The notes beneath the pieces were generated by a model. The model saw nothing but the letters and a program-made list of their open reading frames with translations, was not told the DNA's origin and did no database searches. A stretch of 64,000 nt of DNA from Elsinoe ampelina. Taxonomy: Eukaryota. This document shows, piece by piece, positions 1 through 16,202 of this stretch. The stretch is taken from positions 877,831 through 941,830 of the forward strand of contig ML992512.1 in NCBI GenBank assembly GCA_010093995.1, in the 5' to 3' direction. Both the position numbers and the translations under genes were made by a program. Positions within the stretch are counted from its first letter, which is position 1. Each line of letters starts with the position of its first letter.

Positions 1-1351
1 CCCGCGAGGTCTCGCCTTTGACCGTCACGGAAATCTTCTCGTGGTGGAGTCTGAGCGAGGACGCATCTCTGCTCACAGGCTGGAGACTGACAACAATGGC
101 TGTGTTTCTGTTGCCGACTCAAGGGATGTGACACCAGATGGACTTGATGTGAGTTCTGGGCTGAGTCGGTCTTTCTGTCAATTCTGACCATTTTAGCTCA
201 ATCATGGTATCGCGGTCAGCGAAGACGGTAACACGCTGTATGCCTCCAACGCCGATGAAGCCTATTCGTGGGAGTACAACACAGATGGCCGCACCGTCAA
301 CAACCGTCGGACCCTCGTCCAGAATATGACTGGCAGTGATCATAGCACGCGGACACTTGAGCTGTCTCGCGCGGCACCGGGCATACTGATCATCTCCTTT
401 GGCAGCCAGAGCAACTATGATGCCCTAGCGACTGATGTCACGTCCGGAAGTGCCTCGGTCAGCGCTTTCAATATCACCGCTCTGGGTTCGGAACCCTACA
501 CCTACCAGACTGATGGGACTCTCCTCGGCTGGGGTCTTCGAAACGAAGTCGGCATTGCTGAGCATCCTGTGACCGGCGGTATCTGGGGCGTCGAGAATAG
601 CGCCGATCAGATGATTCGCTACGGTGTCGACATTCATGCGAATAACCCCGCCGAGGAGCTCAACTTCCTGGGAAACATAAGCGAGATGGTCTCTAGTGAC
701 CCCAACGTCGGTTACCAAGGCCCTAATTACGGATACCCATGGTGCTTCTCTGCCTGGGACACCGCCGACCTTCCCCAGAATTCTGGCATTGAAGTTGGCA
801 ACCAATTTGCCATCTCTCCAGTCGATGCTCTCGGCAACAGAAACCAGACTGACGAGTTCTGTGCCAACCGCACCGCCGCCAGACTGGTCTTCCAATCGCA
901 CATGGCGCCGCTTGACATCAAGTTCAACAACTCTGCAACTGAGGCATGGATCGCTTTCCATGGTTCCTGGAACTCGCCAGACCCAGTGGGATACAAGATG
1001 TCCTATGTCCGCTTCAACGAGCAGGGAGAACCAGTTGAGCCCAGCACCAGCACGACCGCAGCCATTGACATCTTTGCCAACCAGGACAACAGCAGGTGTC
1101 CGAGAGATTGCTTCCGTCCTGCGACCATGGCTATTGACGGGCAAGGCAGGATCTTCATGAGCAGCGACTCGAGTGGAGAGATCTACATGGTCCGTCGTGC
1201 CGAGGGCAGCAGTGGCACCACGCCTAGCACGCCTAGCACGACTGGTGGAAGCGGTAGCACACCGAGTCCCACAGGTGGTGTGGCCAGAGTTGTGCCAGGT
1301 TGGTGTCTAGTGGCAGCCTTGTCATTGGCGGCTGTCATGGCTGGGATGTGA
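1..1351 (+). CDS. AA12-type PQQ-dependent sugar (glucose/sorbosone/pyranose) dehydrogenase, 5'-truncated, probable GPI-anchor tail
   Basis: Frame open from base 2 (PRGLAFDRHGNLLVVE), intron 149-196, then LNHGIAVS...GLRNEVGIAEHP...VENSAD...NPAEELN...HMAPLDIKF...FHGSWN...CFRP...SSDSSGEIY. Ends in a Ser/Thr/Gly linker and a hydrophobic C-terminus. Confidence 0.85.
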
Positions 1352-1500: not shown

Positions 1501-3435
1501 CTACGCCTCATCCGTGCTATTGAAATAATGATTCACAACCGGCACCTTGGTATTGCTCCCATACGCACTCCCTCCATAATCCAAATACCCACTCGTATAC
1601 GGCGTACTCGGGAACTTTGCCTTCAACTCCTTCGCCGACCCAAACACCCAAACGGTATTCATCCCTTGCTGCAACAACACGTCAGTCACATTTCCCTCCT
1701 CTCAATCTCATCATGTACTACTACTCACCACCGCATGCGCCGCAATATGACAATGCGCCATCCAAGCCCCGACATTCTGCTTGGTAACCCTCACCCTCCA
1801 CGCCCGCCACCCCATGGTCACATTCGCCCTGCTCGACAGCCCATCGTCCGTGTACCTGTACAAAACCGTCGTGTCCCTCCTCGCGGGCACGTACCCGGCA
1901 TTGACCAACTTCCTCTCGTTCCTGACGGCATTGTACGACCCGTTGCCGCTCCCGAGGTCGTAGACGTGTTCGCCGTGCATGTGCATCGGGTGCGAGTCAA
2001 AGTATTGCCCGACACCCGCGTTGCCTTGCCAGACGATGTCGAGGACTTCGCCGACGCGGGCGGGGTAGGATTTGCTCGACGGGTCGAAGCCGCCGTTTTT
2101 GAGCGCGAGCTTGTAGTTGGGCGCTTTGTCGTCTTTGAGCACCGAGATGAGGTAGGGTGCTCGGTTGGTGGCTGCGATGCGGTCTTCTTGCCAGGCGAAG
2201 TCGTTGGGGACCCAGTCTGCTGGGCCGTCCGGGTGGCCTGGTCCTGCCCAGATGCCGGCTGTGAGTTTGATGGTCATGTTGACGAAGATGGTGCGGGTGA
2301 CTTGGGAGAGAGGGGGGAAGGCGGCGCGGTATGCTGGGCTGAGGGATTGGAGGGTGTATTCGAGGTAGTTGTAAGTGATGTTGGGAACCTGCACGGGGGA
2401 AATGGTGGGGACGGATGATGGAGCTACAACGGGAGTGTCAGGGAGCTTGTATCGGAGGAGGGCGTAGCCAGAGGTAACAACGGGGCGGTCACGGCTTTCG
2501 TAGCGAATCCAGAAGGAGGTTTGGTTAAGTTTCTTGAGCTCGGCGGCAGTCTTGGTCTTCAGGAGGTAGCTGAACCGTTGACCTGGGGCAACCTGGATAT
2601 GGTTGACGCCGGCGAGTTGGGTGTATTCGCCGTCAGCCTCGATGACGCTCAAGTTCGAGTGTCCCTCGATGACGGCTTTGACGATCGGGAGTGCAGTTGC
2701 GCCGACTACACGGAGCCTGTATTGCTTGCCAGGTTCAACATCGATGATATGCGGTTTGCAGCTACCAGACGAGTTTGAGCCAGCTGCGGTGCCGCTCTTG
2801 CCATTGATCATGATAGCATCGGCTTCGCCAGGCCAGATGATAGGATTGCCGGTAAGCTCTTCCACAATGACATCGTCGGTCTTGCTGAAGTACGTTCCAA
2901 CAACTAAGAGTTTGTCTGCATCATACTTGTAGGGCGGCTGCTTGGGTTCCTTGACAATGATTGCACCATGCGCGGTAGCCTGCTGGAAGCCGACGTGCGA
3001 GTGGTAGAAGTAAGTTCCAGCATCGCCCTTGACCGGTCGTACTTCATAATCAAAGAAGTTTCCAGCGGGGATTGGCCATTGAGCAACAAGTGGCGTGCCG
3101 TCTGAGAAAGGAGCAGTACGCTGGCTCAATCCATGCCAATGCTGGAGATGATTAGTCACTGATAGAGACAGATCGTTTGCAACACCTACGACTGTGAGAT
3201 TCTGGTCTTCTAGCCTATTGTATACCCGAATCCAAGTCGTCTTGCCTTCGTTCAGGCGGAGCGTAGGACCTGGACTCGTCCCATTGAAGACTACAGACAC
3301 GCGCTTCTCACAAGCGATATCAAGATTCTTCTGGGTTGCTTCTAGAACGAGATCAGGCACAAATGCTGAATCGTGGCGAACAAGCTCAGCCAATGAAGCA
3401 CTGAGCAGTCCGAGGAAAGGTAGTAAGAGCTTCAT
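1501..3435 (-). CDS. Secreted multicopper oxidase, fungal L-ascorbate oxidase-like (AA1)
   Basis: Signal peptide MKLLLPFLGLLSASLA. Copper motifs HWHG, YFYHSH, HPMHMHG and HCHIAAHAVQGM (Met axial ligand after splicing). Introns at about 3142-3189 and 1669-1728. Confidence 0.9.
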
Positions 3436-4770
3436 GGTCTGTGTAAACGAGTGACGACCCTCGCGACAACCAGATGGAGAGGTTATTTGAGCATGTAAAA
3501 TCGACCAACCTGTATAGACATACCGTCCACAAGCATCTCTCGCTACCATCTCGACCCGGCTGGTTCATCCTACCCAGCGGTGTTGATCAATTTCCCGTGC
3601 TAACGCTGATAGTGCAAATTAGGAATCAATAGGCTGTGCGAGAGGATGAACGACTTTGACAACGTTCGAGACAAGACGAGATGGCATACTGTCAAGAGCC
3701 ACCTTGGTAGTCCTACAATAATGTACTTCGGACCTTTCGTATCCGTCCGGCGACGTTGAGCTGCCCATTGTAGCTGAGGAAGAATCGCCGAGAAAGGCAG
3801 CGATGCCTAGCTGTGTGTACCCACTGTGTGTGACTCTTTGCGCGGTTCGACGACCTCGATGGACGTCGTGCGCAGAGAAGCCCATGCTTGCCACCCGATA
3901 CTGACATGCATAGTGATTGTCGGTACACCGCGATGATGTGGCAAAATGTGTGTGTTGTGGAATGGTTAAACAGCTCCAGCCGAGGTCGGGAGACAAGGCC
4001 CCATAATTTCTTGTTTCGGGAACCCCGCTGAACGTGCCGTTGAAGCAACGCCCTTGAACTTCAGGGCCCGCCCTCAATCGTCTTTCCCATCCTTCATCAA
4101 CGTCGCCGTTCCTTTCACCGTTACGAAGAAGCATGTCGCCGACACAAAAGCGGCCGTTGAGACTCCACCACGACTCTGCAACGCTGAGAGGCTCTCGGCG
4201 ATACGCTCATCTCGCTTCCTGTTCCTTGGTCTGTGAACGCTTCTGAAGTGCGGCACATGCAAGCGATGGTCTCTGCCTGCATAATCATGAGAGCTCGCAT
4301 ATCCATTGGTAATGTGATAGGTGGTCGTCACTGGTTTGTCACTTTGATGTAGGTGGCTTTCATTGATGCGCGGCGCATCATTGTCCTGCTCCCTTATCGC
4401 CACAGTCCAGTCCAATCATGAGCACATTGCACTGTTGGAGAGAGACTTCTCCCAGCAGAGCCTCTTCAAAGGCTCTCCGCCGCTTTGCCCAGCCTAAAGT
4501 GTAGCCGCTGCTCTGAAACATTTATTGGCCGTCAGATAAGGTCCGTCAGCAATAGATACAGTAGCGCTCGCTTGCCACGAGTCGTTGGAGAAAGAGCTTG
4601 CGCACCTCAGACACCGTTGTGAGCGACCAAGCTCGGCCGCTCGAATCGTCCACAGCTGTGGCAATGCCAAACAAACACCATGTCTCTCGAGAAGTTTTCT
4701 TACCTAGAATCTCCTCCAGGGTCAGGTAGACAGCATTCAGGAGAACGACCAGGAACTTGACAGCATCAAG

Positions 4771-5934
4771 ATGGAGAAATCTACACCATTCAGCTCGGCC
4801 GTCGTGTCCGAGGTCAATGGAGACCTTCGACTGAGGAGAATGCCCCCCGTCGTGGAAGAGCAATTCGCCGGTCGCCTCGGTGCCAATCAAGAATTCATCC
4901 TCGACAGACACGACGAGGAAGACAAGGATCAGCTCAAGAAGCATCCCGATGCTGTCAGAATCTACCCAAAGCCACTCACACATTATCTCACTGACCATGA
5001 AAGGCCCCAATCCACACTTTCAAGGACTCCCTCCACCTCGAGGGCTTCCTGTCCCCAGGCCTCTGGCGCATGGCCATAGTCGAAGGATGGGGCACCTTCC
5101 TCCTCATCTGCGTCTTCGGCAGCACATCATCTGGCCTGACCACGCTGGGCATGTCACAAATGGCCACAGTAGCCTACGCCGCAATGGGCGGCTTCATCGG
5201 CCTGATGATGTTCACCTACGCCCTTGGTCCCGTCTCCGGCGCCCATCTCAGTACGACCAATTCCTTTACCCCCCCGTCCCAGATCTTGACTAAACGATTG
5301 CAGACCCAACCATCACAATGGCCACCTTCTTCGCCGGCCTCTCCACCTTCCCCCGTACGGTCCTGTACATCCTCGCCCAAACCATCGGCGGCATCGTCGC
5401 GGGCTACTGGCTCAAGCTCGGCATGGGGGACGCTTTCTACCCTAATGGTGTCATCCCGGGGTGCACGGTGGACAGTTCTCTGGTCAGTGCAGGCGAGATG
5501 TTGGCGCTGGAGTACATGTTCACTCAGGCGTCGATCTTTTTGGCTTTCCTCATCGGTTTGGACCCGAGGCAGGGCAAGACGATTGGGCCTACACTCGGTC
5601 CGGTGCTGGTCGGGTTGATTCTTGGGTTCGGCACCTGGGTGAGCGCGATTGCTAGGCCCGGGTATACTGGGATGTGTAAGTCCTTCGTCGCCATATCGTT
5701 CGCTACTAGTACTGATGGGGATCAGCTTTCAACCCCGCTAGATGCCTGGGCATGATGACTGCCAAAGGCGAGATGACGAACCACTGGGTGCACTGGGTTG
5801 GTCCGTTGGCTGCGACTTTCTTCCATGGGATTTTCTACCACTTCAATCCTCCTTGGGCTAGCGAGGAGCCTCTCTTCGGGAAGGCGTTGGTGTTCTTTGG
5901 GCTTTGGCATACGCCGAAGGATTCGGAGGTGTAA
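4771..5934 (+). CDS. Aquaporin (MIP), X-intrinsic protein (XIP)-like
   Basis: Spliced model (introns about 4954-5003, 5251-5303, 5676-5725) gives SGAHLNPTIT and FNPARCLG, N-terminal FAGRLGANQ, PGC loop and HWVHWVGP. Confidence 0.85.
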
Positions 5935-6209
5935 AGTCCTCGTTTCGCAAGGGTGGAGGTTGGATATGATAGAGGGATATATAATATTGGAGTTGTGGTG
6001 GGGGCGAAATGAATGCTCGTTATGAATACGAATTCTGATCATCCTGAATGTATTCAATCGTGACTCATCCGTTATTCCTCGACATATGATCAAACGCGAA
6101 GGCTGATTGCTCCCTGTGCAGCAACCTGGAATCTGCACATTCAAGTCATACAGGCAGAAGAAGAGAATAGTGTAGCAAAGTGCAATACCAAAACACATTC
6201 TATTCCCAC

Positions 6210-9200
6210 CTATCTCCCCACAGTAGCAAAGTGATCATCATCCTCATAAGGCACCGTAATCACAAAACTCTTCTGCTCCCCCTTACCCTGCGTCGGCACC
6301 TTGACCACCGTCGCCCTCGCCTTCCGATCAAAATACGGCTTCTCCACCGCCTCCGCCCCCTCGACAGTCGCGAGTTTGCTCTCATCCACCCTGGTCTTCG
6401 GATCATGCCAGAACACCACCGTGAACGTCTTGCCCACATCTCTCTCGACAAACGGGTACTTGTCCCACGTCGTCTTGATCTGCAGCCTGCGCTCGAACTT
6501 GTTGGACGTCGCGCCACGCTTGCCGACGCGGTGGATCGTCTGCGAGATCCGGACGTGGGTGAATTTGGAGCCGGCTTCTTGGTCGCCGAAAGCCCCTCGG
6601 AGGCGTTCCCGGCGGTGGGCGCTGGTGTGGCCGATTTCGTCGGAGCCGGCGAGGTAGGCGTCTTCGGGTGCGGAGTCGCGGGAGACGCCGTCGTCGAGGT
6701 ACATGTCGTAGCACTGGGGATGTTAGCTGGGAAGGGACATGCGGGGGACGGAGGAGATGACTTACGTAGGGGCGTTCGGATTCTTCGCGAGCGCATTGGC
6801 TGCGGCCGGGGTAGACGTGGAGGGTGATCGGGGTCTGGATGTTGGCTTGAGCTGGGTCGTTGCGGTCGGGTACGAAGCCGAGGACGGGGATCTGAGGGAT
6901 GATGGCACCTTCGCGGACGTACATGGGCGTGACGTAGGGAAGCTGCTCCTGGATGAGTCGGTTCTCCTCATTGTGCCAGCAAGCATGAACGGAAGCAGTG
7001 TAGTGCACGTGCTTCCCACCAGGAACCCTCCAGGTAAGAGCCTCACCCAAGCTATCGTCATTGTCGAAGGCGCGGAGGTTCAGCTGGTACCAGTCACTCG
7101 GGGCAGGCAAGTATACCTTTCTCCTGTCCCTACGGTCTCTCTCCTTCATGACTGGGGCATGGAGCAAATCGTTCCCAATGAGGTACTGAGATCTGGTAAA
7201 TTCTTCGTTCGAGGCGAAAAGACTGCCATCGTATGGATCGGTAACGATCATTGCACGAGCGATCGGCAGACCGTGAAGCAGATTCTCGAACATGGTATCG
7301 TACAAGAGCTGCATCAACGAGTATCGCAAGCGGATGTAGTATCTGACCACGGGAGAGACAGATCTGTAAAGACCGTACTCGCCGCCAGGGATTTTCATGT
7401 CAGAGAAGGCCGAGCTCTGGGCAAACTCGTCATACGCCCAAGGTTCTTGGAACAATTTCTTTCCTTTCTGAACATAATGGTTCCTGTACCATGGGAGCAG
7501 CGAGTAGGCTACGTTCCATCGGATGAAAAGTTCTGGGTCGCAGAATTGCTCGCCGGTCTCTGGAGGCTCGAAGCCGCCCACGTCAGCGCCTGCGACGGTG
7601 GTACCAGAAAGCCCAAGTGACAGAACTTGAGCGACCGAAATATTGAAGAATTGCCAGGTAGAGCTGTTATCACCAGTCCACAAACCGGCGAATCTGTGCG
7701 CACCGGTGAAGCTGCCTCGACCGATGATGAAGTTGCGCTTGCCCTTGCGGCTCTCCAGCTTGTTCAGACCGTGGTAGGTAGCCTTGTGAAGGTTGTAGCT
7801 GTAGAGTGACCAGAGCTCGATGGCCTTCTTCTTGACCCCTTGCAGGGTCGGATCGCCTGACCAGCCGTCTGCCTCGAGGAGCAGTCGGAAGGGGAAGGAC
7901 TTCATGTCACCATAGTTTTGTCCGATACATGGCCCAGTCATATCTTGCCATACGAACTCCAGGCCGGTTTCGAAGAGAGTCTTGTACTGTTGTCCCCACC
8001 AGGTACGTACGGCTTTGTTGTTGAGGTTGGGATAATGCCCTGGAGAACCCTTCCCTCCCCCGTAGTCGACGCCGCCATGGAAAGGCTCAAGCTTGTTGTT
8101 GAAGTTGTTGCGAAAGTTGTACGTGTCTTTGCCAAAGTTGAAGGTTGCTCTTGTGTCGACGTCGCTTGGATTTGTGGTGTATTTGTCACCCTTTCCGTAT
8201 TGCACGTAGCGAACGTGATCAGAATCAGTCACTGAAGGGTCGATCTCTCGCTGATCCATGACGAAGTAGCCTTTCTTGAGTCCTTCGTTCAGGGTGTTGT
8301 ACCAGTCACAAGGCACATTGGCAACGACCGGAGTGATGTTTGTGCTGCACTTGACACCTTGGGATCGAAGTCTCTTGAACATGGCTTTTGGGTCCGGGAA
8401 AGTTTCGAGATTGATGGTGAATGTGCGGTAGTTGTCCTGCATGTCGACATCGATGTGCATTCCGTCGATGGGATAGTCGTACTGCCTGTACTTGTCCACA
8501 GCACCTTGCACCTTTTCTTGCGTGTCGTATCCGTAGCATCCTTGGTGATATCCAAGGATGTATCGGGGCTTCAGGCGCGGACGGCCGACAATCGAGGTGA
8601 ACAGACTGATAATGTCTTGAACATTGTCTCCAGCAAAGAAGATACCCGCAAAGGCATTGAAACGGGTGGCCATACGGACACTGAGCCAATCAAGACGACC
8701 GATGTCCAAGCAGACTTGGGAGTAGTTGTCGACGAATGTAGCGACTTGGGACTGCAGAGACGGATTTGAGTTCACCTCGATAAAGTACGGATCGGAGTGG
8801 TAGAGTGGCTCTGCATCGCACTCTGGACCCTTGTCGTACACATTGTAGTATCGCATGTTGTCAAAGTTGAAGAAGTTCATGAATGTCTGGTCCTTGATGA
8901 ATTTGGACCCTCCCTGCTCGCCGAAACCCATGTAACGAGCTGTAGGCGTACGCTCGATGGAGAGGACTACAGCGCCGTTGCCGTATTGGAAGCCTCGCTC
9001 CTTGGTTTGCCAAATGACAGCCTCGACCTCTTCGGTTGGGGGAGTCCAGGCAGCAGTGGCAGCACTCGAGCTTGGTAGCGCAAAGAAGGATGGAGTAGCG
9101 CCGACAAATCGTGTAGCAGTGATTCGGAAGGGATCTTTTTGAATCCAGAGTTTGACGCATGGTGTTCTGACAAATCCTTGCGGGTTCTTGGGCGCCTTCG

Positions 9201-9633
9201 TCTTGATCATTGAGGTCAAGATCAGATGCTCGCTGTCATCGTCTGTACCTTCGAGCTCAATATCCCAGTCGATGTCTTCGGCGTGATCGAGCTCTTGAAT
9301 CATGTCTTTGCCTTGTTTTCGGATAATAGTGGCAGTGTTGAAATCGGTAAAGGACTCTCCGCCGTCGTGCTTCTCATTGAAGCGGATGCGCCAGACGCGA
9401 GGCCGCATGAATTGGATGAGCAATACAGCTCCAGTGTCGAACCGAAAGACACGTCCGCGATGGCACACATCGTGGAGCTTGTTCTTTACGTAGTTGTCTT
9501 GCTTGGAGTAGGTGATAGTGGTCGGTATCTTGACCCATGGTGCATATGGTAGATCAAAGTCTGCGAAGAAGTCTTCGGCCTTCTGAAAGGTGTAGGGATC
9601 GCGGTATCTCACCGCCTCCCACGAGTCTGTCAT
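6210..9633 (-). CDS. GH31 exo-alpha-1,4-glucan lyase (1,5-anhydro-D-fructose-forming), about 1123 aa, no signal peptide
   Basis: GH31 core HIDVDMQ, nucleophile context GLEFVWQDMTGP (lyase-type; glucosidases have WIDMNEP), acid WTGDNSS, WYRNHY, N-terminal DPYTFQKAEDFF. Intron 6714-6765 joins the last exon CYDMYLDDG. Confidence 0.85.
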
Positions 9634-10722
9634 GGCGCACGAATTGGAAAGATGGTATTAAAATTTTGTAAAGAAACAGGGGAAGGTGGAGGGAGTGATC
9701 TTGGAGCTAAAGGTAAGGAGAGGTCAAATATTACCACTCGAGTCTGAACAGACACGACCACGTTGACAGCTCTCCCCGTCGCCAATCGATGCTGCCACTG
9801 AAACAATCGTCACTAGCTCCTTCCGAGTGCATTGCATCCAGCCAAGCGGTGATCGACCAGACAACAGACCTGTGGGGATCCATAGCATGGTAGCGCACGA
9901 TGAGGGATTGAGCTATGCAGACGTTGGTCATCGAACGTGGCTGCCCTGAGACGGGAAGGACGGAAGCATGAACAACGACTGAAGCTGTGGCCTGAATACG
10001 CGAGATGCAGGAGATGAAGGAACTGGTTCACCGGCGCGTGGTGGAAGAAGGACAGGAAACAAGTCCAAGGGCAAAATTGGATGGCAACGGTCGAGATGAG
10101 CCGCGTGGGATTTCTCCAAAACCAGCCCGGACGCCCGAGCTTGAACCGGCTTGACCCGAGGTCTTGCCCCGCTTTTGGTGACTTCAGCTCCAATACTGTA
10201 ACTTGACGACCGTTGTTTCCTTTCTCCAACCTCTGTACCTATATCCTCAACTGCCCGGCTTTGTCCTTAAATTTGCTTTTCCTCAGAGAGACATTCACGG
10301 ATTCAATTCCGTGATAGCAACGCCTTCAGCCGCTAATAGCACTGTCTTGGACCACACGGGATGATATGCGAGAAAAACACCTTTCATCAGTTGCCAGAAG
10401 CGGCTGATCTGGTCTGCCCATCGCCGTTCGAACACGTTTGTGCTCTGCGTCCCTCGCAGGGCAAAGCATGGCCGTTGCGGACCTGCCTTGGATAGCTGCC
10501 CCGACAGGAGAGCTGGCGATCATCTCGGACCCCTGATTAGAGCTCTGAATGGGAGAGCTCCAGACGTTGCAGCACGCAGTATGACCCGGTAGGTGAGGAC
10601 CTCTCGAGCTCTCCGTCTGTCATAAGTCCCCTCATCGAGCTTGTCTTTCAGTCACATCTACAAACTATACCCCTTCTAATTTTTGCAATCCACTTCTCTT
10701 CACAAAGACCTTTGCCATAATC

Positions 10723-13260
10723 ATGGCTATGATCACTCCTTCCTTCGACAGCTCAATCATTCAAACAAACAGATCAGATGGGTATTGGGTTGAGTCCATC
10801 AAGGTTGACAGTCAAGATCGCGTTCCTGGTATCATCTCGTAAGTCCGACCCAAGGACCACTACCTTGATGGCCAACACTGACGTACATCAGCTCCGGTCT
10901 TGTCTCCGGCGTAGTCGAGCTTCTTGACAATCCTTTGGCTACTGGTGGAGGGGACGTCAAGGCTCTCAGTCAGCGTACGTACAGCAGGTTTCTCTTCCTA
11001 TCACGATTGTCTTACTGACTACTGCATAGCATGGCCAAAGTATGAGATTGGTCGCTTCAACTCCCCGGTAGCAATATGTACCGTCGACATTTCTGGCAAT
11101 GGCCTTTGTGATGTGGTCGTCTGCCATTCATACGGTCCGTTCATGCTGCAATGCGATCCTACTGGCGGTTGGATCACTTGGCTCGAGAATCCGGGCCGTG
11201 AGAACTTTGGTAAAGGCCCTTGGAAGCAGAGGACAATCGGAAGATGGCCTGCCATGCACCGCATCAAGCCCGGCTTCTTCACACAGAAGTGAGGTCTAGT
11301 CCGACGTTCAATGCGTCAAGTGCTAACAGTACAGGTCGTACCTCGAGATCGTCGCCGCCTCTGTCGTCAGAGCTCCTCACGACAAGGTCACACCAATCCC
11401 AATCATTCGATTTCAAAGACCAGAGAAGGTCTTGGAAGCGTAAGTACCGCACTCATGAATGAATACCAAATGCTGATAGGATCGATCAGCTTAGAATGGC
11501 ACCGAGACATCATCGACGACGAAAATTTCAGCGTCATTCACGAAGTCACCATTAAGAAGTTCGACGGTCCAGAAGGTCTCGACTCCATGCTCATATCCTC
11601 GCGCGAGGGTGTGAAGCGATTGTTCTACAAGAATCAAAGATGGAACACCGAGGTTATCGGCATTGGAGAACTCAAGGAAGACCGACAAGACCCCTTCGTG
11701 GAGACACCTGGTTCTGGCGATCATTGGGGATCTGGATGCGCAGATGCTGGCAAAGTCGGAAGCGACCCTTTCGCATACGTGGCTACTCTCGACCCATTCC
11801 ACGGCACCTCCGTCTGTGTCTACGTCAAAGACAACCACGGCATGTCTTCCTACCGCTGGAAGAGACATGTCCTCGACGTTTACGGCACGCCCAACCAACG
11901 TCTCAAGACAGGTGATGGCCCTCTACACTTCGTCGTCTGTGCCGACTTTGATGGAGATGGTGATGATGAATTTCTCGTCTCCATGTTCGGACCTCTCGAC
12001 CGCGATGAAGAAGGCAACTCCATTCCTCCTCCCCCTGGACCGCATGTGCTCAAGGGCATCATGTACTACAAGGCGGTTGATGTTCAGCGAGGTATCTTCT
12101 CGAAATGGAAGATCACTCCCGAGTCATCTGCTCGTATCGCAATCGGAGACTTCTCCGGCACTGGTCGTCTAGATCTGGTTAGCATGGGCTACAACGTCAA
12201 GCTTTACTACGAAGAGCCTTCGCCTGTTGTAACGCTTCACTTGAACAACACCATCCCTCCCGCCATCGAGAGACCGCAATCACAGATTGTCACCACTGCC
12301 TGGGATGGTGAGGGTATGACTTACCTCCCGTTACCTACTTCGGACCCAACGGACCCCAAGCGCATCAAGCGATTCCGTCATGCCGAGAAGCTAGACCTCA
12401 TTGATGTAGCAGGCTATCGTGTATCAGTCGAGATCCTCCCCTTCAACAGCACGACTCAGGTTGGCGAGGGACAGGGGATCAAAGTTCTCTACGGCAGCGT
12501 CAACGACGGTCAGAAAGAGCGATCGCCTTTCAGCGTAGCTCCTTTCGCTGCTTCCACCACCAAGGTACAAAGCGGCAGTGTACAAGCCGGACCGGTCGGT
12601 GCCATCCTCCTGCGGTTCGCTCCAGTGCGATCCTTCGATGTTGCTTTCGGCGAGGCTGATGATTATGTCACGGTCGCCAATGTTCCAGTCCGTACATTGA
12701 TCCAACCTGTCAAAGCCGCCTTCCCATCGTTGCAATTCAACAGGGTGGAGGACCTCCCCTGGGGATCAAAATTCAAGGGTGTTGACTTTTGCAATCTCTC
12801 CGGCTTCACATTTTCCTTCTTGGAGACTAAGGACTTCCTCGCTCATCTCCAATTCTGGACTGCCGGTGCCAACGTCAACTGCGGTGTGCACAACCATGCT
12901 GATGAGATGTTTCAAGAACTTCACATTTGCCTTTCTCCAGGCACTGGCGATGGTGGCATGTGGAAGCTCAAGAGTGACGAGATTGTCAAAGATGTCCCGA
13001 ACCTCGACACTCTCACCGACGAGCATTTCGACAAATTACCACTTGCCCGTCTCGACGAACATGGCGGTCTTTGGGAGAGGGATTCGTACGGAAAGGCTTT
13101 CAGAGCGCCAGACCGACGAATCATATACCCTTACCATAAATGGCAAAGTGGAAAGGGTCCTAATCTCGACGTCTGGGCTGCTTTGGAGTTCAACCCCGAC
13201 TTGGTGTATGAGACTGGTCATAGGCCAGGTGGTGGCAATGTCACCCACTTCTGCTGTTAA
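10723..13260 (+). CDS. Aldos-2-ulose dehydratase/isomerase (AUDH): beta-propeller plus cupin domains, about 780 aa
   Basis: Five exons (introns about 10840-10890, 10975-11029, 11289-11334, 11440-11489). Motifs DGYWVE, WLENPG, GRWPAMHR, IHEV, PFHG, HFVVCADFDGDGDDEF, ARIAIGDF, and cupin motifs HNHADEMFQELH, EHGGLW, YPYHKW. Confidence 0.85.
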
Positions 13261-14185
13261 GCGCTTGCTGTTGAGCACTCTCTGGCTGTTAGCCATCCGG
13301 TTTTGAGAATTCCATGTTTCCTCTCATCTATCTCATTGCTGCCAATGTTTTGTAGCTGTGCTTGGCTGCGACTCTCCCGATTTTGCTGAGCCATCTGCAC
13401 CTTCGAGCCTTACCGTCTGGATAGCCGACTGCAAATATCGCTCGTCCTACTAGGGTACGCTTGCGTGTTCGGTGTGGATAGTCGTGCTCGCATAACCTTA
13501 GCGTAACTGCTCTCGAAGCTTTACAACGTCCCGTTCGCACCATGTCACCACAAACTTCACAACGTTCGCTTGAGCTAATAAGCCCCATGGCTGTTAGCCT
13601 GGCCGTTGACAACAACCACGAAGCAGTCACTGGTTCCCAACTGCCAATCTCCACCCTTCGATGATCCGGTTCACCTGTGATTAGATATCATTAGTTTCAT
13701 CTTAATACTGGTATTGGCCGACCGAGGATTTGTTCGAAGACGAATGGCGACGATCACTAGGTGAATCTGAGGCCAATCAATTGCAATACAGCTTTCTCAT
13801 CCGGTGCTCAGGATTTAGGACTAGACTCTTGATCCTACGCGTAGATTTGAGCTGCGTCTGAAGGAGCATGACAAGCGTCGACACGTGTAGAACGAAGCTC
13901 AATGAGGCAAACACCACGATAAGCGACAGGATGCAAAATTTCGATAGCAGATATGGCATGCTTGGCTAGATGATTAGACATGAGACCTTCTCATCGGTTG
14001 CTATCAGGCGGTGTCACCTGGTAGCATGCCCTGTTTGCTCGTCAACGGGCAGTATCGTTAGACTACCTTGGCATGGTGGCCAACACCCAGAACCGACTGC
14101 CAGAGACGCCTTGGATTTTGCCATCGTAGTTAAGATCTTAAGCAGTCAGTGAATATACTGCCACCGACAACGAGTATCGACCATC

Positions 14186-16202
14186 ATGACTGGAACTATC
14201 CTGGGTGACGGTGTCATCGTACACCACGGCTCGTGGTACAATAATGCAGAGGGGCTATGGATCCTCACGCTTACCAATATGGAGGCGAATTACCTTCTCG
14301 CTGCCATTGCTCTGTACATCACCTTCTATTCTCAGGACTTCTGGTATGCAGTCAGATGGGTCCTTCACAGCTTCCGTTACTCGGATCCCAACCCTCAGCA
14401 TGTCATCCATCACCAGCTTCAGGTCGCTCTTCGCAACAGTGGCAATCCTGGATCTTACCTCTACAAATGTATCTTGATCTGGTGGGCTTGGAGGAAAGTA
14501 GTTGCCGCTAGAGCATTGAGGAGATGCGGCCTTGAGATCTTCTACTCTCTCGTCGTATTCGGCGGCTGGATCCTCGCCGGTGTCTTCATTGCTGTCGTCC
14601 TCGAGGAAGTTCCAAAGGATGTGCTCCTTGCGGCTGATCCCACCTGCGGTCTTGAGTACAAGAACTGGACGCTTCAACCTGACGAGCAGCTGTCATGGCT
14701 CAGATACCGCGAGCAGGTCGTGGAATCCCAGATGCCTCGGGTCGACGGATGCTGGTTTGGTAACTGGACCAAGGCTGCCTGCAGTTTCTATCCTGTACCA
14801 AAGTTTGAGCTCGAAAATGAGCCTGCCGAGTGTCCACTGTCGAACCATACGCTCTGCACATCGACACCCATCGAATTCCATGTCGGGCCTGTTCGTTCAG
14901 ACCACGACCTGGGCATCGATACCACACCCGAGGAAGCAGTGGTCTACAACAGAGTCACCACTTGCTCGACCATCAATCTGGAACCTTATGTGACCAATAT
15001 TGTAGTCAATCGTAGTGTGTCCGACAACGACGATATTCCGCTCGGTAGCATCTCCAAGCAATTCGACATTGGTAACCATATCCGCATGGATGGCGAAGAT
15101 CCCATTACCCTGTCTTTGGTCAACAAGTCGTCTCTCTACGGCTACTACATCGAGTGAGTACTATTCCTTGGGCTGACAAAAGCTCGCCGGCTGACCTTCC
15201 AGTTCGTGGCAAGATGGCGATCCAGAATCCAGCATCAACTGGGCACCTCGTGAGGACATCTTCCCGCACGAAGGCAATTGGAATCTCTTCTTCCTCCGTC
15301 AAGTCAGCCTCCGCTACACCAGCTCACTCGACGACGCATTCCTGCGATCCACCAACCCAACCCCTCAACGTGTCGAGGACCCACTGTATTACAAAACCGA
15401 CCTCTTCGCCCCCAACGACCCCTACACCTCCCTCGCCTGCCTCACCCGCCACCAATTCTGCAAAGTCGACAACTCGAGCTGCACCGACTGGATGAAATTC
15501 GAGCACCTGGGCCCGCTGGACCTCAGCCCCGCCACCTTCTCCCCCACCCAAGACATCATCATCCAACGCATCGTCAACCAAACCTCACAATTCGGCCTCG
15601 CCTCGGTCGTCCGCGACCTGGGCTCCCAAGCGCTCTTCGCCTCCCAATCCCTCATCGAAGACATCAACATCGGCTCCTTCTCCGACCGCCAATGGACCAC
15701 CGAAGTCGAGCGCTGGATCGCCTCCACCCTCGCGGTCCTCCAGTACCAGATCACCTTTTTCGTGCGCGGGTTCGAGACACAGGTCAACGGCACCGCGCCG
15801 ATGGTGCAGGGTAGGCCGGAGCTGAAGGCCCTCTGCGGGAGACAGAGAGTCACGCAGACGGGAGTGAACACGAGGAATTTCCACTTTATCGGGGTGTTGG
15901 CTTGTTTCCTCGTTGGTGTCGTGGTGAATGCGATGAGTTTGTTCGGCAGCAAGGTTAATGATTTGGTGCAGAGGTTTAGGACTAGTGAGAGGCCTGGGAA
16001 GGAGTGGAATCAGGATGGGCTGTTTCAGTTGCATAGACGTCATTTGGAGCTCGATGGGGTCGTGGGGTGGGAGGGGTTGGATGACGAGATTCCGGTCGTT
16101 GATGGGGTGGTGGAGAGGAGTACGTGTAAGGAGTTGGGTGGGGAGTCGAGTGGGGTGCAGAGTAAGGAGGGGGTTGTGATGAGGGTGCAGGAGACGGTGT
16201 AA
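14186..16202 (+). CDS. Uncharacterised fungal multi-pass membrane protein with Cys-containing, N-glycosylated luminal domain
   Basis: ORFs 14186-15157 and 15492-16202 joined by an intron at about 15154-15202. N-terminal TMs with HHQLQVALRN, several N-x-S/T sites, C-terminal TM followed by W..DGLFQLHR. Confidence 0.7.

Follow-up and report, generated by a model that had tools for sequence, protein, structure and literature searches.

A conserved head-to-head pair of glucan lyase-type and aldos-2-ulose dehydratase-like genes in Elsinoe ampelina as a probable anhydrofructose-to-pyrone module

Elsinoe ampelina is a grapevine fungus of the Dothideomycetes (order Myriangiales). In a 64,000-nucleotide stretch of its genome (contig ML992512.1; hereafter the window), positions 6210-13260 hold two divergent genes with their ATG codons head to head, one encoding a glycoside hydrolase family 31 (GH31) protein of the alpha-1,4-glucan lyase type and the other a protein resembling aldos-2-ulose dehydratase (AUDH). 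We consider it likely that this pair is a conserved module leading from glycogen through 1,5-anhydro-D-fructose (1,5-anhydrofructose, AF) to ascopyrone M/microthecin. The two genes and the DNA between them are laid out as follows.

6210..9633, minus strand: GH31 alpha-1,4-glucan lyase-type gene, 1123 aa, one intron, modelled from open reading frames (ORFs) and splice sites
9634..10722, no strand: divergent intergenic region, 1089 bp, presumed shared or bidirectional promoter
10723..13260, plus strand: AUDH-like gene (propeller plus bicupin), 777 aa, four introns

The GH31 gene starts at the ATG at 9633 and comprises exon 1 (9633-6766, 956 codons), a 52-nt GT..AG intron (6765-6714) and exon 2 (6713-6210, including the stop codon); the AUDH-like gene, with its ATG at 10723, has exons at 10723-10838, 10892-10974, 11030-11288, 11335-11439 and 11490-13260. 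All five introns, each with GT..AG ends, are exactly spliced out in the contigs of the four public runs placed on 5800-13700, the GH31 joint being 6713>6766 in 4/4 runs and all four introns of the AUDH-like gene being missing in 4/4; these runs come from two studies, and their type was guessed as RNA, not recorded. Our 777-aa model agrees with the deposited E. ampelina protein P0248 at every position (777/777 residues), and the deposited GH31 model P0001 (1048 aa) corresponds to residues 76-1123 of our 1123-aa model, starting 75 codons downstream. Since the E. australis orthologue has 1123 aa, equal to our model, and a contig of run X2 (9170-9673) spans the upstream ATG, the public GH31 model looks N-terminally shortened (window 9409-9633, minus strand). 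Reading both sequences by eye, we saw no hydrophobic signal-like stretch at either N-terminus.

The GH31 protein has the N-terminal mutarotase-like domain (PF13802, 2e-08), the TIM barrel (PF01055, 3.5e-70) and the C-terminal domain (PF21365, 9.4e-12) in Pfam. Its best match in the PDB is the red-algal glucan lyase 2x2h (8.3e-44, 153.1 bits); however, the best hydrolase, maltase-glucoamylase (MGAM), scores almost as high (151.8 bits), hence the PDB scores alone leave lyase versus hydrolase unsettled. Given this near-tie, and since hydrolases are the majority of GH31, the adjacency might be read as general carbohydrate metabolism, with the GH31 protein being an alpha-glucosidase or transglucosylase and the AUDH-like protein using either glucosone supplied by a pyranose oxidase, as in the cortalcerone route, or some other 2-keto sugar. 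We regard this as very unlikely, and both the phylogeny and the diagnostic residues of the GH31 protein argue against it. A search of a protein collection returned 583 proteins at E <= 1e-10, of which the best 120 were examined; the characterised Morchella vulgaris lyase Q9UVZ1 matched with 44% identity over 98% coverage (828 bits, 3.9e-243), and the M. costata lyase Q9UVZ2 belongs to the same 90% cluster as the Morchella sextelata match. With HMMER, 598 proteins among 1.84 billion representatives passed E <= 1e-30; in the best 150 of these, the top scorers bear W-Q-D-M-[T/M/V/A]-x-P at the nucleophile, and W-x-D-M-N-E-P becomes increasingly frequent below ~250 bits, with fragments of both kinds intermixed. 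A tree of 57 rows (MAFFT, 736 of 2702 columns retained; FastTree, LG+gamma) was then built from the window protein, 21 named fungal proteins from the 120, 34 of the 150 representatives and the GH31 of the metagenome locus L042; fragments were excluded, as were four multi-domain giants (P0285, P0307, P0310, P0349) and the majority of the near-duplicate fungal rows. In this tree, 40 WQDM-type rows part from 17 hydrolase-type (WxDMNE) rows with a local support of 1.0, and the 22 named fungal rows, the window protein and the Morchella lyase among them, form one clade, likewise with support 1.0. Both sides are anchored: P0400 (WQDMTVP) matches the red-algal lyase 2x2h alone in the PDB (6e-100), and the PDB matches of P0374 and P0316 are alpha-glucosidases, with 300-517 bits.

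The predicted catalytic residues and those diagnostic for lyases were located in the window protein by alignment to 2x2h.

7930..7950, minus strand: nucleophile motif WQDMTGP (within FVWQDMTGP), residues 562-568, aligned to WQDMTVP of 2x2h
8338..8340, minus strand: Asn432, equivalent of Asn459 of the Gracilariopsis lyase, from the alignment of TNIT with TNIT
7582..7584, minus strand: Asp684 in GADVGGF, predicted general acid (Asp665 of 2x2h), aligned with GSDIGGF of 2x2h

Asp564, the predicted nucleophile and base, aligns to D553 of 2x2h, and Gly567 occupies the site of the hydrolase Glu, where PDB hydrolases read WIDMNE, WNDMNEP or WNDVNEP. Glu at +3 from the nucleophile is found in none of the 40 lyase-type rows versus 15 of the 17 hydrolase-type rows; moreover, the pattern WQDM[TA]xP occurs in 119 of the best 120 of the 583 family members (P0120 was missed by the pattern), and DMNE in none of these 120. 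Rozeboom and colleagues reportedly found, in 2013, that a Glu-to-Val change at +3 pushes a hydrolase toward lyase activity. The column of Asn432 holds Asn in 37/40 lyase-type rows, and Ile (13), Met (3) or Asn (1) in the 17 hydrolase-type rows; the window protein thus has Asn instead of Ile here and lacks Glu at +3. According to the available part of a recent study, Asn459 of the algal lyase assists the nucleophile as a base and is replaced by Ile in GH31 hydrolases (PMC12441222). Asp is present at the general-acid column in all 57 tree rows. Hence, clade membership together with the diagnostic residues supports the placement of the window GH31 in the alpha-1,4-glucan lyase type.

The second protein has the seven-bladed propeller and the bicupin of AUDH. 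PF18637 (AUDH_Cupin) matches exon 5 at 6.3e-90 over profile positions 2-308 of 308, and PF22301 (AUDH_beta_propeller) matches exon 5 at 3.2e-36 and exon 3, with the profile start, at 3.1e-14; like the GH31 domain matches, these lie well outside what chance would give. The sole PDB match at E <= 0.001 is the Phanerochaete chrysosporium AUDH 4a7k (3.6e-74, chain residues 203-733), and exon 3 matches chain residues 83-163 of the same structure. The presumed catalytic residues lie as follows.

11257..11259, plus strand: His143 in WPAMHR, equivalent of AUDH His155 (chain-index numbering), from the alignment of pgmHRlk with pamHRik
12889..12924, plus strand: cupin motif HNHADEMFQELH with His655, His657, Glu664 and His666, the His/Glu pattern being identical to 4a7k
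13135..13137, plus strand: His737 (the His of YPxH), completing the presumed cupin metal site and identical in 4a7k

Claesson and colleagues are said to have proposed, in 2012, that His155 is the catalytic base of the propeller dehydration site. The motif around the His143 site was readable in 49 of the 54 metagenome loci described below, with His in 48 and Tyr in the Tuber-like L048. In alignment A1 (25 sequences: the window protein and 24 ascomycete homologues), H478, which corresponds to His666, does not vary, and conservation reaches 90% or more at H467, H469, E476 and H549; these His/Glu residues are presumed to form the metal site. The domains, the match to a solved structure and the conserved residues collectively support the AUDH assignment.

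An earlier note on this DNA, made from the letters alone, had claimed a GH31 with the lyase-type context FVWQDMTGP beside an AUDH-type propeller-cupin protein, the two being transcribed divergently from about 1.09 kb of shared DNA. The motif is present, the phylogeny and the lyase-type residues bear out the lyase identity, and the intergenic distance agrees; the profile and structure matches likewise confirm the AUDH type, with the correction that the protein has no lectin domain.

Two further observations concern the AUDH-like family. The window protein ends in ...THFCC (13243-13257, plus strand), and a Cys or Cys-Cys end after a variable tail recurs in 9/25 sequences of A1 (the window protein, P0121, P0122, P0123, P0130, P0144, P0146, P0158 and P0172); it could be a lipidation or metal-binding tail. 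Bacteria, in turn, have propeller-only AUDH-type proteins of ~410 aa with no cupin (P0205-P0240; loci L013-L040, L046, L047), the named matches being from Streptomyces, Actinosynnema, Saccharothrix, Actinophytocola and Paenibacillus; these proteins share 42-46% identity with the propeller of the fungi and retain the H-R of the His155 motif.

The linkage of the two genes extends far beyond Elsinoe. As a proxy for synteny we used locus tags, accession numbers and the size of the contig bearing each protein, all taken from the protein searches. The accessions or locus tags of the GH31 and AUDH-like proteins directly follow one another in 16 species, namely E. australis (two assemblies), Sphaceloma murrayae, Lepidopterella palustris, Halenospora varia, Colletotrichum truncatum, C. 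musicola, C. plurivorum, Tuber brumale, T. indicum, Cercophora sp., Monosporascus sp. GIB2, Ascobolus immersus, Escovopsis weberi, Dactylonectria macrodidyma, Fusarium austroafricanum and F. sarcochroum. One number lies between them in Tricladium varicosporioides, Diplodia intermedia, C. sojae and Choiromyces venosus, and six in Kalaharituber. In 28 species both proteins are on a contig of the same size, some of these contigs being just 17-190 kb long. The linked species cover Dothideomycetes, Sordariomycetes, Leotiomycetes and Pezizomycetes (taxonomy was looked up for four of them, and the remainder were placed from general knowledge). Such retained adjacency supports a functional module. For a chance neighbourhood with no functional coupling speaks only that the genes are unlinked in Morchella snyderi and Peziza echinospora; the shared contigs, the consecutive numbering across four classes and the head-to-head arrangement in four metagenomic lineages run counter to it. 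We therefore find a chance origin scarcely credible, and the synteny survey effectively refutes it.

Metagenomic data gave an independent view of the same arrangement. Scanning with alignment A1 yielded 54 loci (an earlier scan with the single protein had confirmed 0/38 pattern matches). Six loci carry a full-length propeller plus cupin gene with at least 5 kb upstream, and in five of these (L002, L003, L005, L006, L014) a lyase-type GH31 gene lies upstream on the opposite strand, head to head, in the layout of the window. The five represent about three lineages, L003 and L005 being near-identical, as are L002 and L006. A further lineage, the fifth, is represented by L042 (40-5367; 28% GC, intronless), in which AUDH and a lyase-type GH31 (WQDMTTP) are both intact and stand tail to tail. 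In its relative L044 (1105-6907; 33% GC, intronless), AUDH adjoins a GSDH/TrAA12-like gene and a GMC oxidoreductase gene. Outside Dikarya-like contigs, AUDH is hence paired with either kind of 2-keto-sugar supplier, a lyase-type GH31 in L042 and a GMC oxidoreductase in L044. AUDH accepts glucosone, and this, together with the GMC neighbour in L044 and a TrAA12-like gene at 197-1348 of the window, would fit the general carbohydrate metabolism set out above. However, a domain scan of 28 of the 63 ORFs with 130 aa or more in window 1-30000 gave no GMC oxidoreductase that could stand for a pyranose 2-oxidase next to AUDH, and wherever GH31 stands beside AUDH it is of the lyase type.

AUDH turns AF into microthecin by way of ascopyrone M. 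The anhydrofructose module that we favour would proceed as follows. The GH31 protein, as a cytosolic alpha-1,4-glucan lyase (EC 4.2.2.13), would attack glycogen or malto-oligosaccharides from their non-reducing ends, and the glucosyl-Asp564 intermediate would be resolved by elimination instead of hydrolysis, releasing AF. The AUDH-type enzyme (EC 4.2.1.110-like) would then dehydrate AF to ascopyrone M at its propeller site (His143), and the cupin metal site would probably isomerise ascopyrone M to microthecin. Both genes are transcribed divergently from the 1089 bp of common DNA, and their adjacency, which is kept across Pezizomycotina, would be expected if AF is useful, or tolerated, only when processed at once. 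The end product in Elsinoe may be either microthecin or ascopyrone P, and an antibacterial pyrone, a stress metabolite and carbon sequestration are candidate roles, as is the defence or antioxidant function put forward in the earlier note. The available part of PMC12441222 states that glucan lyase frees AF from glycogen or starch and that fungi turn AF into antibacterial ascopyrones and microthecin. In the accessible text of another study, Escovopsioides nivea, called closely related to Escovopsis, gave 17.8 mg of microthecin (PMC13765081); together with the adjacent pair in Escovopsis weberi, this provides a chemical pointer for the module.

Several observations weigh against such a module. 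The linkage, which a survey suggested by the earlier note was to follow across fungi, stood in the 16 species named above and proved not to be universal. In Morchella snyderi (P0185, P0413, P0419), the AUDH-like gene and two GH31 paralogues are on three contigs (1.71, 1.55 and 1.92 Mb), and Morchella is the genus in which microthecin formation from AF was first described. Nor do the two genes share a contig in Peziza echinospora, where the cupin HNH motif is gone from the AUDH-like protein (P0190). AUDH-like proteins occur in Aspergillus and Penicillium, and no GH31 of these two genera is among the best 120 of the 583, which suggests that AUDH-like enzymes may have other substrate suppliers. 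Decay is seen among the metagenome loci: in L002/L006 the GH31 (2494-6518) is a pseudogene that contains a stop and no longer has the nucleophile (WRAMT); in a fourth lineage, L052-L054 (8911-10216), GH31 is intact and AUDH has decayed to a remnant with a stop; and in L007, the sixth of the loci with a full-length AUDH gene, which is 94-96% identical to L002 from ~6770 onward, tblastn finds no GH31. The AUDH-like protein itself is distant from the characterised AUDH (254 bits), Tyr replaces His at the His155 position in Tuber brumale P0182 as well as in L048, and the C-terminal lectin domain is missing, the match stopping at 4a7k residue 733 and the protein ending ~20 residues later. To our knowledge, the characterised orthologues of either protein are those of Morchella and Phanerochaete alone; we infer the activities of both enzymes, the end product, the co-regulation of the two genes and the biological role. 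In the portion of PMC13765081 at hand, microthecin was tried on a single fungus (N = 1) and produced no zone of inhibition. In C. tofieldiae and Neofusicoccum parvum the contig sizes of the two genes also differ, which may stem from different assemblies.

It would also be possible that the same two enzymes form a module that stops at ascopyrone M, the AUDH-like protein being a 1,5-anhydrofructose dehydratase only (EC 4.2.1.111-like), whose product would either return to catabolism or be tautomerised to ascopyrone P, the enzyme for the latter step being unlinked, so that microthecin would not be the product; in particular, the protein could act as a dehydratase only, with an unlinked tautomerase making ascopyrone P. 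This would be in line with the lack of the lectin domain in each of the 24 ascomycete homologues that were aligned (the extension of P0181 is unrelated), and reference titles on Anthracobia melaloma name a separate AF dehydratase and an ascopyrone tautomerase; we know of no gene for that dehydratase. The lectin domain of AUDH (about residues 740-900 of 900) is not known to be catalytic. Against this reading, the cupin His/Glu cluster, which is the isomerase site in AUDH, is so well conserved in A1 that the second site is arguably functional, and a close relative of the pair-bearing Escovopsis makes microthecin. On balance, we think it unlikely that the route ends at ascopyrone M, and retain the module from glycogen to ascopyrone M/microthecin.

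Spliced contigs of both the GH31 and the AUDH-like gene are present in 4/4 runs, although expression can be neither ranked nor correlated from contigs. Run X1 has a 375-nt contig within the intergenic region (9679-10053), and its contig with the AUDH transcript already starts at 10240, 483 nt before the ATG; the transcript-free gap between the genes may hence be short, though contigs cannot mark transcript ends. Within 9634-10722, the counts of the stress response element (STRE), the CreA site, CGG-N-CCG, the heat shock element (HSE), CCAAT and TATAAA were not above those of window tiles. The genes flanking the pair are listed below.

197-1348, plus strand: TrAA12-like gene, in the flank beyond the GH31 3' end
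1714-3564, minus strand: multicopper oxidase gene, in the same flank
about 4700-5800, plus strand: aquaporin gene, in the same flank
14153-16199, plus strand: gene without Pfam match, directly downstream of the AUDH-like gene and followed by housekeeping genes

In the distant lineage L003/L005 (L003 12814-16907), AUDH is likewise followed by an aquaporin and a multicopper oxidase gene. We considered an extended cluster including these two genes and judged it weak: the closest homologues of the aquaporin are ordinary Dothideomycete aquaporins, and in E. batatas the aquaporin KVT40_004254 is ~600 tags from the AUDH gene KVT40_003648. For these reasons the module is limited to two genes. The region 14153-16199 contains two long frames (334 and 335 aa, stop to stop); neither has a Pfam match, and tblastn gives no counterpart in the 54 metagenome loci.

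Both enzymes, the pathway and the pairing of pyranose 2-oxidase (P2O) with AUDH are already known; the part that seems new is the conserved pairing of lyase and AUDH. The AF pathway has been known biochemically for decades, and no genetic organisation of it in an ascomycete was found in the searchable open literature, nor does any paper in the searchable full-text literature contain both 'glucan lyase' and 'aldos-2-ulose dehydratase'. Within this scope, outside which stand the subscription papers Yu 2005 and Claesson 2012, no description of the linkage turned up, and the earlier note knew of none either. Its expectation that the lyase would be auto-annotated as an alpha-glucosidase proved right, entries bearing the name 'glycosyl hydrolases family 31-domain-containing protein / alpha-glucosidase'; 'hypothetical protein' is the name under which the AUDH-like protein is deposited. 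The conserved pair would correct the annotation of hundreds of such 'alpha-glucosidase' and 'hypothetical protein' entries, would give a genetic handle (knock-outs, co-expression) on a route that standard cluster finders, being keyed to core enzymes, would miss, and would predict which fungi, many plant pathogens included, are able to make AF-derived pyrones. There is also applied interest in AF and microthecin as antioxidant and antibacterial compounds.

A broader reading, to which we give even chances, combines these points: the head-to-head pair would be an ancient, Pezizomycotina-wide cryptic biosynthetic module without a polyketide synthase (PKS) or nonribosomal peptide synthetase (NRPS), would contain the ascomycete AF dehydratase gene, and would use AUDH as a modular 'finisher'. 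If this is true, the long-missing gene of the ascomycete anhydrofructose dehydratase would be identified, and many crop pathogens (Elsinoe, Colletotrichum, Fusarium, Macrophomina/Botryosphaeriaceae) as well as mycoparasites (Escovopsis) could make antibacterial pyrones (microthecin/ascopyrones) from glycogen of their own. In that case AUDH would be a 'finisher' repeatedly paired with suppliers of 2-keto sugars, glucan lyase in ascomycetes and pyranose oxidase in basidiomycetes, with both supplier kinds in the low-GC intronless lineage (L042, L044). An AUDH with such alternative suppliers, lyase here and oxidase in basidiomycetes, would be an example of modular pathway assembly.

Among characterised proteins, the lyases of Morchella vulgaris and M. 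costata (Q9UVZ1 and Q9UVZ2; EC 4.2.2.13) share with the window GH31 the subfamily, the domain order, the clade (support 1.0), the WQDMT-x-P context and the Asn of STNIT. With lengths of 1070 and 1066 aa versus 1123 aa, they are ~50 residues shorter, they have Thr at +3 where the window protein has Gly, and the lyase gene of Morchella snyderi, unlike that of the window, is not linked to an AUDH-like gene. The Gracilariopsis lemaneiformis lyase (2X2H), the best PDB match, conserves the equivalents of the nucleophile, the acid and Asn459; it differs in scoring only 153 bits, in having Val at +3 and in belonging to a separate WQDM-type branch, represented by P0400. The Phanerochaete chrysosporium AUDH (4A7K; EC 4.2.1.110) resembles the second protein in its propeller and bicupin, which are collinear over chain residues 83-733, and in the conserved His155 equivalent and cupin His/Glu cluster, while it is a basidiomycete protein of 900 aa with a lectin domain, as opposed to an ascomycete protein of 777 aa without one. 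The enzymes of Anthracobia melaloma, from which Yu and colleagues reportedly purified an AF dehydratase and an ascopyrone tautomerase in 2004, offer an ascomycete route from AF to ascopyrones, and can be compared by description only; the AUDH-like gene is a candidate for the gene of an Anthracobia-type AF dehydratase, and no candidate for the tautomerase that the Anthracobia route uses was identified in the window.

The closest parallel in gene organisation comes from wood-decay basidiomycetes, in which, according to the available part of PMC4256170, the pyranose 2-oxidase gene immediately adjoins the pyranosone dehydratase gene, an arrangement read as a route from glucose to cortalcerone. In both systems a 2-keto-sugar maker adjoins AUDH, and a pyrone antibiotic would arise without a PKS or NRPS core. 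They differ in the supplier: in basidiomycetes glucosone comes from an oxidase and leads to cortalcerone, whereas in the window the neighbour of the AUDH-like gene is a glucan lyase, not pyranose oxidase, and AF from a glycogen-cleaving lyase would be expected to lead to microthecin or ascopyrone. By this analogy, the window may hold the ascomycete counterpart of the pyranose-oxidase/AUDH pair, in which the 2-keto sugar would be supplied by a lyase acting on cytosolic glycogen.

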